Below, in pieces: positions 39,849 to 53,350 of a DNA stretch of 64,000 nucleotides. This DNA comes from Eledone cirrhosa (lineage: Eukaryota). The position numbers were made by a program, and so were the translations under genes. The notes beneath the pieces are model-generated. The model ran no database searches and was not told where the DNA came from. It was given only the letters and a program-made list of their open reading frames with translations. The stretch lies in NCBI GenBank assembly GCA_964016885.1, contig CAXHJY010000437.1, positions 62,001 to 126,000 of the forward strand, read 5' to 3'. Within the stretch, counting starts at the first letter, position 1. Every line of letters starts with the position of its first letter.

Positions 39849-40408
39849 GTCAGGTCACCAGTTGGTGCTACTGGTAACATGTATCCCAGTACAACCTGTC
39901 TCATGGTCGGGTCGTTGGCGACTAAACTGGCAACTAAAAACAAAACCTGTCAAAGGGCAAAGGAGCTCTTAAGAGTCAATGGCCATCCAAAATCACTGGG
40001 AGAGATGACCCCTTAGCCTTTGTCAAGGCAGAATTCTAGGAGAAGGAAAACTCTGATGTAACACCTGCAACCTTGATGATATCCAATGATGTTGACTTGT
40101 TCTTCTTTTTGGTAAATATCATCTTGGTTAAGAGAGTGGGACTGGCTTTGTGCAGTGCCTTTGCTCACTATAAAAGCTTCACGGCACAGGCATTGCTTTA
40201 TATCTGGAGATCTCTCTGCACTTGTCGTCACATGGTACCATGGGCCCTGCACTATGTGTCAATAATGGTCACAAGTGTAGTGTTTGTACCAGAGTTTTCA
40301 AGTTGCTGGCTGGACTAAAAAGTCACATTCGTTCGGCGCATCGGTAGGGGTTCTCCTACATGGATATAAAGTAGTGGCCGTACTCGAAAACGAGTTGGCA
40401 GCCACCAT
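39849..40408 (+). mobile_element. ~610-bp non-autonomous retroelement, copy 1 (~50-bp internal deletion)
   Basis: 5' GTCAGGTCACC ... 3' GGCAGCCACCAT, then (TA)/(GTAT)n; six copies in the window. Confidence 0.9.
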
Positions 40409-41248
40409 ATATATATATATATATATATGTATGTATGTATGTATGTATGTATATATATATATGTATGTATGTATATATATATATGTATGTATGTATATAT
40501 ATATATGTATGTATGTATATATATATATGTATGTATGTATGTATATATATATATATATATGTATGTATATATATGTATATGTATGTATATATATATATAT
40601 ATATATGTATATGTATGTATATATATATATATGTCTGTATATATATATGTATGTATATATATATGTATGTATATATATGTATATGTATGTATATATATGT
40701 ATATGTATGTATATATATGTATATGTATGTATATATATGTATATGTATGTATATATATGTATATGTATGTATATATATATATATGTATGTACGTATATTT
40801 ATATATGTATGTATATTTATATATGTATGTATATATGTATGTATGTATGTATGTATATATGTATGTATGTATATATGTATGTATGTATGTATATATATAT
40901 ATGTATGTATATATGTATGTATGTATGTATATATGTATGTATGTATGTATATATATATATATGTATGTATATATATATATGTATGTATATATATATATGT
41001 ATGTATATATATATATGTATGTATATATATATATGTATGTATATATATATATGTATGTATATATATATATGTATGTATATATATATGTATATATGTATGT
41101 ATATATGTATATATGTATGTATATATGTATATATGTATATATATATGTATGTATGTATATATATATGTATGTATGTATATATGTATATATATATATGTAT
41201 GTATGTATGTATGTATGTATGTATGTATATGTATGTATGTATGTATAT

Positions 41249-41757
41249 AGGTTTCTTGGTGAGGAGGGTGACTTTGGACATCCTGCAGGACTAAAAGCAA
41301 AACCTGTCAAAGGGCAAAGGACCTTTTAAGAGTCAATGGCCATCCAAAATCACCGGGAGAGATGACCCCTTAGCCTTTGTCAAGGCAGAATTCTAGGAGA
41401 AGGAAAACTCTGATATAACACCTGCAACCCTGATGGTATCCAATGATGTTCTTCTTTTTGGTAAATATCATCTTGGTTAAGAGAGTGGGACTGGCTTTGT
41501 GCAGTGCCTTTGCTCACTATAAAAGCTTCACGTCACAGGCATTGCTTTAAATCTGGAGATCTCTCTGCACTTCTCGGAACATGGTACCATGGGCCCAGCA
41601 CTATGTGTCAATAATTGTCACATGTGTAGTCTTTGTACCACAGTTTTCAAGTCGCTGGCTGGACTAAAAAGTCACACTCGTTCAGCGCATCGGTAGGAGT
41701 TCTCCTACATGGATATAAAGTAGTGGCCGTACTCGAAAACGAGTTGGCAGCCACCAT
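41249..41757 (+). mobile_element. Same element, copy 2 (5'-truncated)
   Basis: Sequence match to copies 3 and 4; same 3' end. Confidence 0.9.
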
Positions 41758-42220
41758 GTATGTATATATGTATGTATGTATATGTATGTATGTATGTATG
41801 TATATATATGTATGTATGTATATGTATGTATGTATGTATGTATATATATATATATATATGTATGTATATATATATATATATGTATGAATATATATGTATG
41901 TATATATATGTATGTATGTATGTATGTATATGTATGTATGTATGTATATATATGTATGTATGTATGTATATGTATGTATGTATGTATGTATATATATGTA
42001 TGTATATATATGTATGTATGTATATGTATGTATGTATATATATGTATGTATATTTATGTATGTATATATATGTATGTATGTATATGTATGTATGTATATG
42101 TATGTATGTATATGTATGTATGCATATATATGTATGTATGTATATGTATGTATGTATATATGTATGTATGTATGTATGTATGTATATATGTATATATGTA
42201 TGTATATATGTATGTATTAT

Positions 42221-42302
42221 GTCAGGTCACCAGTTGGTGCTACTGGTAACATGTATCCCAGTACAACCTGACCCATGGTCGGGTCGTTGGCGACTAAACT
42301 GG
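42221..42302 (+). ncRNA. Candidate HDV-like (nested double pseudoknot) ribozyme
   Basis: P1 GTCAGGT/ACCTGAC, P2 CCAGT/ACTGG, P3 TACTGG/CCAGTA, P4 TCG-TTGG-CGA, J4/2 CTAA; helix order as in HDV-like ribozymes, but P3/L3 are atypically large. Confidence 0.45.
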
Positions 42303-42830
42303 CAACCCCACCAAGGTTTCTTGGTGAGGAGGGTGACTTTGGACATCCTGTAGGACTAAAAACAAAACCTGTCAAAGGGCAAAGGAGCTCTTAAGAGTCA
42401 ATGGCCATCCAAAATCACCGGGAGAGATGACCCCTTAGCCTTTGTCAAGGCAGAATTCTAGGAGAGGGAAAACTCTCATATAACACCTGCAACTCTGATG
42501 GTATCCAATGATGTTGACTTGTTCTTCTTTTTGGTAAATATCATCTTAGTTAAGAGAGTGGGACTGGCTTTGTGCAGTGCCTTTGCTCACTATAAAAGCT
42601 TCACGGCACAGGCATTGCTTTAAATCTGGAGATCTCTCTGCACTTGTCGTCACAGGGTACCATGGGCCCTGCACTATGTGTCAATATTTGTCACAAGTGT
42701 AGTGTTTGTACCAGAGTTTTCAAGTCGCTGGCTGGACTAAAAAGTCTCACTCGTTCAGCGCATCGGTAGGGGTTCTCCTATATGGATATAAAGTAGTGGC
42801 CGTACTCGAAAACGAGTTGGCAGCCACCAT
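42221..42830 (+). mobile_element. Same element, copy 3 (full-length)
   Basis: Same 5' boundary as copies 1 and 4. Confidence 0.9.
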
Positions 42831-50528: not shown

Positions 50529-52148
50529 TTCGACTTGGAGAAGGCCTTCGACAGAGTCCCCCGTTCCATTATCTGGTGGGCTCTTAGAAAACTAGGTGTT
50601 GATGAATGGCTTGTCAGAGCTATACAAGCCATGTATAAAGAAACAGTCAGCAAGGTTAGAATTAACAATGAATATAGTGAAGAGTTTAGTGTAAAAGTTG
50701 GTGTTCATCAGGGCTCTGTTCTTAGCCCCCTACTATTTATTATTGCCCTCCAGGCTATAACAGTGGAGTTCAAGACCGGCTGCCCATGGGAACTCCTATA
50801 CGCAGATGATCTAACGCTCATAGCTGAATCAATGGCCGAGCTAGAGAAGAAATTCCAAACATGGAAGCACGGCCTAGAATCAAAAGGCCTTAAAATTAAC
50901 CTAGCTAAGACTAAAGTTCTAGTTTGTAAGAAAGAAAATAAGGCGGCGGTCCCCTCCGGGAAGTGGCCATGCGCAGAGTGTAGGAAAGGCGTAGGTAGAA
51001 ATTCCATTTTGTGTCCCAAATGCAAAGTTTGGGTGCATAAAAGATGTAGTGGGATCACAGGTAAGCTAACTAAGAACATAGATTTTACATGTGGCCGGTG
51101 TTCTGGGGAAATAAGTAGCAGCAAGTGCCCACAAAATACTAGCTCTTTCAACTGCGCAGAGGGTTCTATAGAAATAGTGGACAGCTTCCGTTACCTGGGT
51201 GACAAAATCAGCAGTGGGGGAGGGTACTCTGAAAGTACAGTAGCTAGAGTCAGAACTGGGTGGAAAAAGTTCAGCGAGCTTATACCACTATTAGCTGCTA
51301 AAGGGTTCTCCCTAAAAATGAAAGGCAGGCTGTACGATGCCTGCATACGAACAGCAATGTTGCATGGCAGTGAGACCTGGGCATTGTGTACAGAGGATAT
51401 ACGCAGACTAGAGAGAAACGAAGCTTGCATGCTCCGCTGGATGTGTAATAGTAATATACGTGAACGACAAAGCATAAACGAACTAAGGAAAAAATTAGAA
51501 ATAAGAGGGATCAGATGTTGTTTACTAGAGAGAAGGCTACGTTGGTATGGTCACGTGATGCGCATGAAGGATGATAGCTGTATAACAAAGTGCAGGGCAA
51601 TAAAGATAGACGGTAGCCACGGATTAGGCAGACCCAGAAAAACCTGGGACGAGCTGATAAACTCCGACCTCACACACTTACACCTCACCAAGACAATGTC
51701 ACTGGACCGAGACCTTTGGCGGTACTCAGTAATAGAGAAGACCCGCCTTACCTAAATACAAAGTAAAACCTACTACAGTCAGTAGGCATCTCTAACAAAA
51801 TACAACCTCGTCCCACCACCCCCACCACATCCACACCGCCCCCTTCTATGTAAAGTTATGTTGGGGCCACACCATCCAGGCCGAAATAAATGAGATCATG
51901 TAGGTGTCACAACAAAAAAACACACAGTCCACGCTGTAATGTGGCCGTGTAGGCAACACGGTAAAAACCTCCCAGACCCACACTGTAAATGTGGTTGGTG
52001 TTAGGAAGGGCATCCAACTGTAGAAAACCTGCCAGACAGTCCTATGCGAGCAAGACAATCACTCTTGCCTCAAGTGGGAATACCCCCGTCCAAACCCATG
52101 CAAGCGTGGAACACGGACGTTAAACGTTGATGACAATGATGATGATGA
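50529..52148 (+). mobile_element. RTE family A, 5'-truncated (open frame to 51755)
   Basis: DLEKAFDRV...LLYADD...EKTRLT*, 3' UTR, (GAT)n. Confidence 0.95.
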
Positions 52149-52267
52149 TATATGTATGTATGTATATATATGTATGTATATATATGTATGCATATATATA
52201 TATGTATGTATGTATATATATATATGTATGTATATATATATATGTCTGTATATATATATATTAAGGA

Positions 52268-52805
52268 CACAAGTGTGTATTTAATGATGATGGTGTACGC
52301 CATCACTGACGCTGATAAGAAAGTAGCTTGGAAGTGTCATTACGAAAGGCTTCTAAATGAGGAGAATAAATGGGAGAAAGACAGTCTCCCCCACATCGAC
52401 CCAATAGAGGGACCAGCAGTGTTAGTCAAAGGTAGTATAATAAGTAAGGCAATCAAAGATATGAAGACGGGTAAGGCGGCTGGGCCTTCTGAAATAGTTG
52501 CTGAGATGCTGAAAGCTTCTGGAATGGCAGGACACGCTATGGTCACCCGGATAGTAAACCAAGTCATACAGAATGGGGTTGTTCCGAAGGACTGGCGTAG
52601 CAGCATCATCATTGACTGCTACAAGGGTAAAGGAGACACCCTAGATAGGGGAAACTATAGAGGCATTAAATTAATCGACCAGGTCATGAAGGTCACAGAA
52701 AAAGTCCTATGCGAGCAAGACAACCACTCTTGCCTCAAGTGGGAAAACTCCCATCCAAACCCATGCAAGCGTGGAACATGGACGTTAAACGATGATGATG
52801 ATGAT
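52268..52805 (+). mobile_element. RTE family A fragment with the RT N-part fused directly to the 3' tail
   Basis: ...[21 protein letters not shown]; junction at ~52703. Confidence 0.9.
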
Positions 52806-52939
52806 GTATATATATGTATGTATATATATATATATGTATGTATGTATATATATGTATGTATGTATATATATGTATGTATATATATATGTATGTATACATA
52901 TATACATACACACATATATACATATAGATACATATATAT

Positions 52940-53350
52940 ATGGTGGCTGCCAACTCGTTTTCGAGTACGGCCACTACTTTATATCCTTGTAGGAGAACCC
53001 CTACCGATGCGCTGAACGAGTGACTTTTTAGTCCAGCCAGTGACTTGAAAACTCTGGTACAAACACTACACTTGTGACAATTATTGACACATAGTGCTGG
53101 GCCCATGGTACCATGTGACAACAGGTGCAGAGAGATCTACAGATATAAAGCAATGCCTGTGCCGTGAAGCTTTTATAGTGTGCAAAGGCACTGCACAAAG
53201 CCAGTCCCACTCTCTTAACCAAGATGATATTTACCAAAAAGAAGAACAAGTTAACATCATTGGATACCATCAGGGTTGCAGGTGTTATATCAGAGTTTTC
53301 CTTCTCCTAGAATTCTGCCTTGACAAAGGCTAAGGGGTCATCTCTCCCGG
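52940..53350 (-). mobile_element. ~610-bp non-autonomous retroelement, copy 6 (5'-truncated, inverted)
   Basis: Reverse complement of 48315-48727. Confidence 0.9.

Follow-up and report, generated by a model that had tools for sequence, protein, structure and literature searches.

A short retroelement of Eledone cirrhosa composed of the two ends of an RTE-like LINE and inserted in TA/GTAT microsatellites

A stretch of 64,000 bp from the curled octopus Eledone cirrhosa (assembly GCA_964016885.1, contig CAXHJY010000437.1, positions 62,001 to 126,000; hereafter the window) contains six copies of a repeat of ~610 bp within 13.5 kb, and raises the question what such an element is and what has moved it. 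The preliminary description, made from the letters of the window, had proposed a bipartite derivative of a long interspersed element (LINE), which would consist of a 5' untranslated region (UTR) and the extreme 3' end of an autonomous partner not seen there. We located this partner elsewhere in the genome and refer to it as LINE-A. The element equals the first ~432 nt and the last ~181 nt of LINE-A. Taken together, the data make it likely that the six repeats derive from an RTE-like LINE by an internal deletion, which joined its 5' UTR to its last 39 codons and 3' UTR, and that this non-autonomous element is probably transcribed from the retained 5' UTR and probably reverse-transcribed in trans, at nicks in TA/GTAT repeats, by the protein of a related LINE.

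The element joins the two ends of one LINE

LINE-A measures ~4.05 kb and has a single open reading frame (ORF) that specifies an apurinic/apyrimidinic (AP) endonuclease, a reverse transcriptase (RT) and three C-terminal C2H2 fingers. The ORF of ~1180 aa starts as MKVPNTIEVNG... and has Pfam matches to Exo_endo_phos, RVT_1 and C-terminal C2H2 fingers, the first two of which lie in one frame series. All 16 full-length copies recovered follow the same plan: element positions 1-432, an ORF of ~3.45 kb and element positions 435-615, with a total length of 3.67-4.08 kb. The identity to the element is 89-99% at the 5' end (positions ~1-432) and 85-99% at the 3' end (positions 435-615), and 13 of the 16 copies start at element position 1-6. 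One long copy, L112, reads in this way from position 7 up to 432, continues with an endonuclease-RT ORF and closes with 435-615. A DNA search with the start of the LINE-A ORF (246 first-look candidates, 40 scored, 30 loci examined) led to the same arrangement, as the 5' ORF DNA was directly preceded by element sequence to ~432 in 30 of 30 loci.

The junction could be read base by base. LINE-A has ...CACTTGTC(A/G)TC|TTGATG... at the 5' side of the breakpoint and ...CCTTGGGTC|ACATGG... at the 3' side, and the element itself reads ...CACTTGTCGTCACATGG..., so that the single breakpoint falls within a shared GTC microhomology, ~50 nt ahead of the start of the ORF. The element is collinear with both ends of one LINE, with one breakpoint between them. 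Since the ends and the junction of LINE-A match the element, the bipartite LINE-derived origin that had been proposed is shown directly.

An ORF scan of the flanks of the fetched loci revealed LINE C-termini ending in C2H2 fingers. In L078 such a C-terminus was followed by the tail of the element (family A, see below), and in L025 and L063 by a long repeat-rich 3' UTR with the tail of a second family (B). A protein search with the piece from L078 returned 150 scored matches (76-100% identical), none of which lay in an open frame longer than 721 aa. Three pattern searches for a LINE with the tail of the element and another body had presumed a junction at element position ~405, ~446 or ~575, whereas the real breakpoint is at 432-435; they returned 65, 47 and 9 matches without consistent upstream sequence. 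In contigs from four sequencing runs, no well-supported branch point into a LINE was present among the ends listed, next to a further 322 loose ends. Copies of LINE-A end in ...CCACCAT followed by (TA)n/(GTAT)n, without poly(A).

Composition of the element and other possible origins

From the parental ORF the element retains only the last 39 codons, and it has no coding capacity for an RT or endonuclease, which agrees with the earlier remark that no RT was seen. The 3' part reads in frame as a C2H2 finger, for which the Pfam match to zf-C2H2 (E 1.8e-4) stays below the cut-off, and 63 nt with two hairpins come after the finger. With the ORF remnant of 57 aa as query, a word-indexed search of longer proteins gave no match, and phmmer gave 112; as all of these were multi-finger C2H2 proteins, the result confirms only that the remnant is a C2H2 finger. 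Also in line with the preliminary description, the element has no likeness to the two kinds of LINE within the window (BLAST at word size 7, best E only 0.23 and 0.28).

Considering its length and copy number and its LINE-derived 3' end, the element might be taken for a classical short interspersed element (SINE), in which an RNA polymerase III head from a small RNA is joined to a borrowed LINE tail. However, ARAGORN found no tRNA at positions 38000-55000 of the window, and a search of Rfam at E up to 10 showed no small-RNA family inside the element, nor a hammerhead or other ribozyme, and gave sub-threshold miRNA-like matches on the flanking microsatellite only. The lack of a polymerase III head, stated before, thus holds. 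Moreover, the whole 5' part to position 432 is the own 5' end of the parent LINE in 16 of 16 copies, which renders a classical SINE very improbable. A non-autonomous Helitron-type rolling-circle element, with its 3' hairpin and insertion at AT, would account for the hairpin a few bases from the 3' end and for the insertion in TA-rich DNA. The ends of Helitrons are defined as 5' TC and 3' CTRR, but the element runs from GTCAGG to CCACCA. In addition, 47 of 96 sampled copies are 5'-truncated and both ends belong to a LINE that encodes an RT, and we consider a Helitron even less credible than a SINE.

Copy number, age and state of the parent

In the genome of 3.0 Gb, a 30-mer across the deletion junction has 13,517 occurrences (6,817 forward and 6,700 reverse; control 0) and the corresponding 30-mer across the parental 5'UTR/ORF boundary has 19. 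The family thus numbers at least 13,517 copies, compared with 19 parents in which this boundary is preserved, and the element outnumbers its full-length parents by ~700 to 1. In a DNA search with the fourth copy of the window, c4 (1886 first-look candidates, 40 scored), all 40 scored matches were 99-100% identical to the query and located on many contigs, and many element copies are 100% identical. The 19 LINE-A copies with an exact boundary were all broken or rearranged (longest frame 646 aa) and the 16 full-length copies are 88.4-95.4% identical to one another. The parent LINE-A therefore looks dead.

The ends of the element were compared in 96 copies with a 3' end and flanks of 40 nt, taken from the loci L001-L081 and the window. 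The common 5' end is complete in 49 of them; the other 47, one of which is a LINE-A 3' end, are truncated at points spread from position 12 to position 448. The fixed 3' end is present in all. The pattern of target-primed reverse transcription that had been recognized in the window thus extends to the larger sample. The same applies to the clustering of copies. Many loci from the search with c4 hold further copies within 1.5 kb, and among the first 100 listed places on contig 1 (the first 41 Mb) 12 of 99 successive gaps were below 2 kb, where ~0.5 would be expected at the mean spacing of 415 kb. Given this excess of short gaps, the cluster in the window is typical of the family.

Some variation within the family was observed. 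A subfamily that lacks 8 bases just past the junction (CATGGTACCATGG reduced to CATGG) is found genome-wide, for instance at G000:C1:70972959, and comprised at least 13 of 47 pattern matches. At window positions 48209, 48316, 48544 and 48628 most copies among the contigs of sequencing run X1 carry another letter than c4; because of these four differences, c4 and its identical copies appear to be a young subfamily and not the majority type. The sequencing runs X1-X19, with ~16 organism labels from 17 studies, contain 44-98% of the sampled 31-mers of the element. In X5 and X8 it is present at low depth with 0-4 differences per contig, where related species, low coverage and carry-over are indistinguishable. 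There was no RNA run among the sequencing runs listed as containing the element.

The six copies in the window

The preliminary description had counted six copies, three with one exact 5' end and three 5'-truncated, with a fixed 3' end made up of a hairpin, CAT and (GTAT)/(TA)n. Motif search, BLAST and alignment reproduced each of these features (Table 1). The hairpin core ACTCGAAAACGAGT has exactly six occurrences in the window, five on the forward and one on the reverse strand, and BLAST with c1 as query leads to the same six places. The copies c1, c3 and c4 open with the same GTCAGGTCACC and the 3' end ...GTGGCCGTACTCGAAAACGAGTTGGCAGCCACCAT, followed by (TA)n/(GTAT)n, is common to all six. 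In the alignment of the six copies, 405 of 689 columns are invariant. The arrays between them measure 100-1,545 bp according to Tandem Repeats Finder.

Since five of the six copies have the same orientation and all lie in one repeat-rich tract of 13.5 kb, they could stem from one or two insertions that were duplicated locally, in tandem or as a segment. However, the truncated copies start at three different element positions (~133, ~158 and ~229), a deletion of 50 bp is private to c1, and other chromosomes hold copies with 100% identity to c4. The pairwise Kimura two-parameter (K2P) distances between the window copies are 2.0-5.5%; c4 is the nearest window copy for every other one, and c6 for c4 itself. 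Furthermore, in a set of 72 copies from elsewhere, each of the six has 4 to 53 that are closer to it than its nearest neighbour in the window, although the figure for c4 is trivial as 30 of the 72 were selected for likeness to it. Given the differing truncation points, the private deletion and the closer relatives elsewhere, the six are independent insertions of different ages. The distances and outside relatives exclude segmental duplication, which had been named as the alternative to be checked, and leave very little probability for local duplication of any kind.

Two other kinds of LINE were encountered in the window (Table 1). A CR1/L2-like LINE with the domains Exo_endo_phos_2 and RVT_1 is located in the microsatellite tract of the six copies, between c3 and c4; its end consists of (TCAAAGTTAT)2 and then (TA)n, and it has nothing in common with the 610-bp element. 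The second kind is RTE-like, carries a PHD finger inserted behind the RT and has the tail ...GGACGTTAAACGTTGATGA(TGA)n; one 5'-truncated copy of it is situated inside the span of the six copies, where it opens directly at the microsatellite.

Table 1. Positions of the copies of the element, their parts and neighbouring features (window positions, unless a locus is given)
Feature	Position	Strand	Remarks
c1	39849-40407	+	full 5' end; private 50-bp internal deletion in the 5'-UTR-derived part; 2.0% K2P from c4
c2	~41250-41756	+	5'-truncated, begins at ~element position 133, directly after microsatellite
c3	42221-42829	+	full length
c4	48118-48726	+	full length; belongs to the youngest subfamily, with 100% identical copies on other chromosomes
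c5	~49150-49606	+	5'-truncated, begins at ~element position 158, directly after microsatellite
c6	52941-~53350	-	inverted; 5'-truncated, begins at ~element position 229, directly after microsatellite
c4, LINE-A 5' UTR	48118-48543	+	element positions ~7-432; carries small ORF (MVSNDVDLFFF...)
c4, deletion junction CACTTGCCGTCACATGG	48538-48554	+	LINE-A 5' UTR joined to ORF end at GTC microhomology
c4, end of LINE-A ORF	48547-48666	+	last 39 codons and stop; third C2H2 finger
c4, 3'-terminal stem-loop	48693-48724	+	GTGGC..ACTCG-AAAA-CGAGT..GCCAC; 2-3 nt short of element end
(TA)n/(GTAT)n array between c1 and c2	40408-41249		Tandem Repeats Finder
Like TA/GTAT arrays	39648-39848, 41756-42222, 42832-43483, 46567-48111, 48726-49147		Tandem Repeats Finder
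Further like TA/GTAT arrays	49609-49725, 52804-52941, 53351-53416		Tandem Repeats Finder
CR1/L2-like LINE	43487-46566	+	uninterrupted 998-aa frame
PHD-bearing RTE-like LINE copies	6293-9811 (-), 9936-11888, 16714-18468, 34225-35748, 50532-52147 (+)		
Family B copies	L029:2147-2778, L012:~420-817		
Family C copies	L005:939-1444, L010, L012:~1-419		

Insertion in TA/GTAT repeats

Read in the orientation of the element, both flanks consist of TA/GTAT repeats in all of the 30 best genomic copies. Within the set of 96 sampled copies, microsatellite-like sequence occupied the 20 nt upstream in 75 cases and the 20 nt downstream in 86 cases, and GTAT words exceeded ATAC words by 378:31 upstream and 371:16 downstream; these fractions are indicative only, as the loci were picked by similarity or odd patterns. 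The parent behaves alike: TA/GTAT repeats directly precede all 13 LINE-A copies with a full 5' end, of which two lie 8-18 nt behind the 3' end of an earlier element. Across the genome the insertions are clustered, and they occupy (TA)n/(GTAT)n in a single orientation. The suggestion that the GTAT-rich tail of the element is its own target is hereby supported in a wider form, the target being (TA)n/(GTAT)n generally, with the tails of earlier copies included.

The association might also be passive, such that the elements build (TA)n/(GTAT)n tails by slippage and persist there, without a target preference. RTE-clade elements are indeed reported to seed microsatellites at their 3' ends (in the accessible part of PMC2887409), each window copy is followed by a long array, and unrelated LINEs adjoin the repeats as well. 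This would leave unexplained that the 5' flank is microsatellite too, in the 30 best copies, the 75 sampled ones and the 13 LINE-A copies alike, often with no earlier element in sight, and that the upstream words are so strongly biased towards GTAT. We therefore regard a purely passive link as unlikely and retain insertion into the repeats as the preferred explanation.

Tail families and the 3' stem-loop

At loci neighbouring the element we found two further short families. Family B ends in ATGGCCATACTCGATAACGAGGGGGCAGCCATCAT, and family C in ..ACTCTTAGCAGAGTTTGCAGCCATCAT or ACTCATAGCTGAGT. Common to both and to family A are the last ~45 nt and a 5' body of ~400 nt, the latter at ~70-85% identity. 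In family C a longer part of the LINE 5' UTR (up to ...GGCCGTAG.CTAAAA...) precedes the jump to the hairpin, and in family B the parts are connected by an ATT-rich stretch. By their composition, families B and C look like independent deletion derivatives of related LINEs.

The three tail families have TACTC..GAG...GCAGCCAYCAT in common. When the stem-loop is laid over seven tail variants, 91% of the cells are paired, versus 17-49% with the partner slid, and two stem pairs change on both sides (GC/UA/AU and GC/AU); this covariation gives moderate support to the structure, because it was taken from one counted sequence and there are only seven rows. The tail of the element is identical to that of LINE-A.

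Further features were noted near the 5' end. A 5'-terminal stem (window 48124-48135, and at the same place in L029 and L005) differs on both sides between the families, reading CACCA-GT-TGGTG in A, CACTC-TT-GAGTG in B and CGCTC-TC-GAGTG in C; read by eye, these changes are suggestive of a conserved RNA or DNA hairpin at the 5' end. A small ORF in the 5' UTR (MVSNDVDLFFFLVNIILVKRVGLAL..., 70-74 aa; window 48400-48630 in c4) is open in 11 of the 16 old LINE-A copies (L146-L161) and ends where the main ORF starts. Families A, B and C all show the motif RVGL..C..F.H.K in frame. A second ORF (MAIRALDQHH...), which overlaps the start of the main ORF, is open over at least 116 aa in 9 of the 16 copies. 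The two could possibly be short first ORFs of RTE type.

A possible present source of the enzyme

A protein search with the longest LINE-A frame, in which 53 of 106,040 first-look candidates were scored, uncovered a second family at 60-61% protein identity to LINE-A, which we designate LINE-B. It accounted for 39 scored matches, all without stops and in frames of 918-1,333 aa. The eight copies that were fetched all have an open frame of 1,194-1,333 aa (with an ORF of ~1,180 aa from MMFQNN...) and are 99.4-99.8% identical pairwise, and in six of them the 3' UTR ends in the family-B hairpin. Intact LINE-B copies (L170-L172, L162-L169) have a 5' region of ~1.5 kb, the start of which is unlike the GTCAGGTCACC head of LINE-A and the short families; this region nevertheless carries the shared 'body' just ahead of the ORF. 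Judged from this arrangement, 5' modules would seem to have been swapped between LINE lineages.

As copies of the element reach 100% identity, the element is as young as LINE-B, and it is younger than any LINE-A copy seen. The simplest reading is that LINE-B, rather than LINE-A, now supplies the enzyme; it is the least certain step of the scheme, and one towards which we incline only by a little. Alternatively, the element may still be mobilized by its own parent, in which case a few intact LINE-A copies would supply the enzyme and LINE-B would not be involved. The identity of the tails speaks for this, since the tail of the element is that of LINE-A and not that of LINE-B. So does the small share of candidates scored in the protein search. 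In addition, some LINE-A 5' UTRs are up to 98.8% identical to c4, implying that LINE-A was active not long ago. Against the parent stand the 19 broken copies out of 19 with an exact boundary, the lack of any frame above 721 aa among the 150 scored C-terminal matches, and the fact that no pair among the 16 full-length copies exceeds 95.4% identity, where copies of the element reach 100%. We judge continued mobilization by LINE-A to be a rather doubtful option, though one with a real chance, and proceed with LINE-B as the presumed donor at present.

Proposed mechanism

The steps below are modelled on stringent LINE/SINE pairs and on RTE-clade elements, as described in the accessible parts of PMC1636434, PMC6007223 and PMC2887409. 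A promoter in the retained 5' UTR would give rise to a full-length RNA. By analogy, the 3' stem-loop and the terminal GCAGCCAYCAT may form the handle that is bound by the LINE protein, the endonuclease of which would nick TA/GTAT repeats. The nicked strand could then prime on the (UA/GUAU)n tail of the RNA, and because the two would pair through these repeats, insertion would occur in a single orientation. Reverse transcription would often halt early, which would account for the 5' truncations. Slippage would lengthen the tail, and as each new tail would serve as a new target, copies would pile up in arrays.

Several points weigh against this reading. As to the enzyme, the tail of LINE-B differs from that of the element at 8 of 37 positions (29 of 37 are identical, with compensatory changes in the stem), and acceptance by the LINE-B protein is putative; moreover, intact LINE-A could be hidden in unassembled sequence or have an altered boundary 30-mer. 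As to the hairpin, the sequences counted include the one that supplied its structure, and the folding energy of the tails was not better than that of shuffles (z -1.19 for the element's own tail, and -0.86, +0.87 and +0.66). As to the target, the flank statistics come from selected and not from random loci, and a target-site duplication is unreadable inside a microsatellite. Finally, the CR1-like and the PHD-bearing RTE-like LINEs of the window also abut TA/GTAT repeats, so the association may in part be a general property of these tracts, which may be generally permissive.

A more far-reaching version of this scheme, which we put forward tentatively and consider possible rather than probable, is that the element is an orphan that outlives its dead RTE-like parent, with more than 13,000 copies or 700 per surviving full-length parent, by means of the enzyme of a 61%-identical sister and a covarying 3' stem-loop. 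In this version the three C2H2 fingers would read (GTAT)n/(TA)n, so that the family would both target and build the TA/GTAT arrays. The presence of unrelated LINEs next to the same repeats weakens the part that concerns targeting by the fingers.

Affiliation of LINE-A and related systems

In BLASTP comparisons LINE-A is 26% identical over 783 aa to the PHD-bearing RTE-like LINE of the window (E 6e-55, endonuclease and RT), and it matches the CR1-like LINE over 224 aa of the RT only (E 2e-19). The likeness to RTE/RTEX 5' UTRs suggested in the preliminary description therefore pointed in the right direction, since the parent is much nearer to the RTE-like than to the CR1-like LINE. Its layout is of RTE type, with one long ORF, an N-terminal AP-endonuclease and RT, no gag-like ORF1 and a length of ~4.05 kb. 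A protein collection contained 816 relatives at E <= 1e-10. The best 120 of these are 44-61% identical and mostly 1,000-1,200 aa long; among them many are from contigs of ~4 kb, many have C2H2 matches in Pfam, and a protein of Branchiostoma is included. Candidate partners of the Penelope-like, R4/Dong and R1 kinds were dropped, since the parent has an AP-endonuclease and is closest to an RTE-like LINE.

A close counterpart in layout is RTE-2_OV of Octopus vulgaris, which was placed in the RTE clade by the phylogeny of its authors and combines an endonuclease, an RT and a C2H2 finger within a single ORF (Petrosino et al. 2022, PMC9115989, in its accessible part). According to the same source, its UTRs measure some hundred bases and a microsatellite from the ORF end fills most of the 3' UTR. 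LINE-B has the same layout, as compared by described architecture and not by sequence. The ORF of RTE-2_OV has 1109 aa, versus ~1180 aa here, and that part of the report describes no deletion derivative; a motif search in eight supplementary files of PMC9115989 gave 0 matches. We thus use the term RTE-like for LINE-A on the basis of its architecture, the BLASTP comparisons and the layout of RTE-2_OV. A literature search on RTEX in combination with zinc finger yielded nothing on the clade.

In Trypanosoma brucei, RIME (0.5 kb) is ingi (5.25 kb) minus the central 4.7 kb, and the two have similar copy numbers (PMC2323293, in the portion available). The likeness to this pair, and to NARTc/L1Tc, is that the short element is a LINE minus its central coding part, the 0.61 kb here being the ~4.05-kb LINE-A minus ~3.45 kb. 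Differences are the LINE clade and host, and the end in a stem-loop and microsatellite here instead of an A-rich stretch. Furthermore, the excess of ~700 to 1 over a parent that looks dead contrasts with the similar numbers given for the trypanosome pair in that portion.

The head of UnaSINE1 of the eel is derived from a small RNA, whereas the element described here carries the LINE's own 5' UTR as its head. With regard to the tail, UnaL2 and UnaSINE1 share a conserved 3' stem-loop and a short repeat tail that are critical for mobilization (PMC1636434, in the excerpt available). As in that excerpt, a LINE and its short partner here share a 3' stem-loop followed by short repeats.

LINEs of the R1, Tx1 and R4 groups include Waldo, Mino, Kibi, Koshi and Dong. 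These target the microsatellites ACAY, AC, TC, TTC and TAA, respectively, and no RTE-like member is named among them in the accessible part of the source (PMC3812793); the ACAY target of Waldo is complementary to the GTAT-type repeat in which the present element inserts. Lepidopteran RTE elements have a single ORF, a very short simple-repeat 3' UTR and frequent 3' partial copies tied to microsatellites (PMC2887409, in part). They resemble LINE-A as single-ORF RTE elements associated with microsatellites, but the short copies in that account are 5'-truncated LINEs and not a self-amplifying derivative of 5' UTR plus 3' end. More generally, the microsatellite-like 3' repeats of the RTE clade correlate with the cleavage or priming site (PMC6007223, in part). 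Hence, RIME/ingi is the nearest analogue in kind, UnaL2/UnaSINE1 in the logic of the tail and Waldo-like LINEs in the target; the element belongs with RIME/ingi and the RTE-derived non-autonomous elements.

Implications

The family accounts for thousands of 'unclassified SINE-like' repeats in this genome and for much of the sequence that is shared beside TA/GTAT microsatellites, which is relevant to annotation in marker design and assembly. An annotation of Octopus vulgaris from 2026 counts 893 unclassified SINE families among the recently active repeats (PMC13282606, in its accessible part), and elements of this sort may already be present, unnamed, in such repeat libraries.

The element provides a clean worked example of how one deletion that keeps the 5' UTR and the 3' recognition tail turns a LINE into a far more successful parasite of that LINE. 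Considering that related LINEs seem to have given rise to at least three derivatives (tail families A, B and C), this route appears to recur. Of some interest are the 700:1 excess over the parent, the apparent survival past the death of the parent and the repeated birth of derivatives. If the cross-mobilization and the finger-guided targeting are true, the element and its LINE would be a handy pair for asking what a protein of RTE type recognizes in RNA and in DNA.

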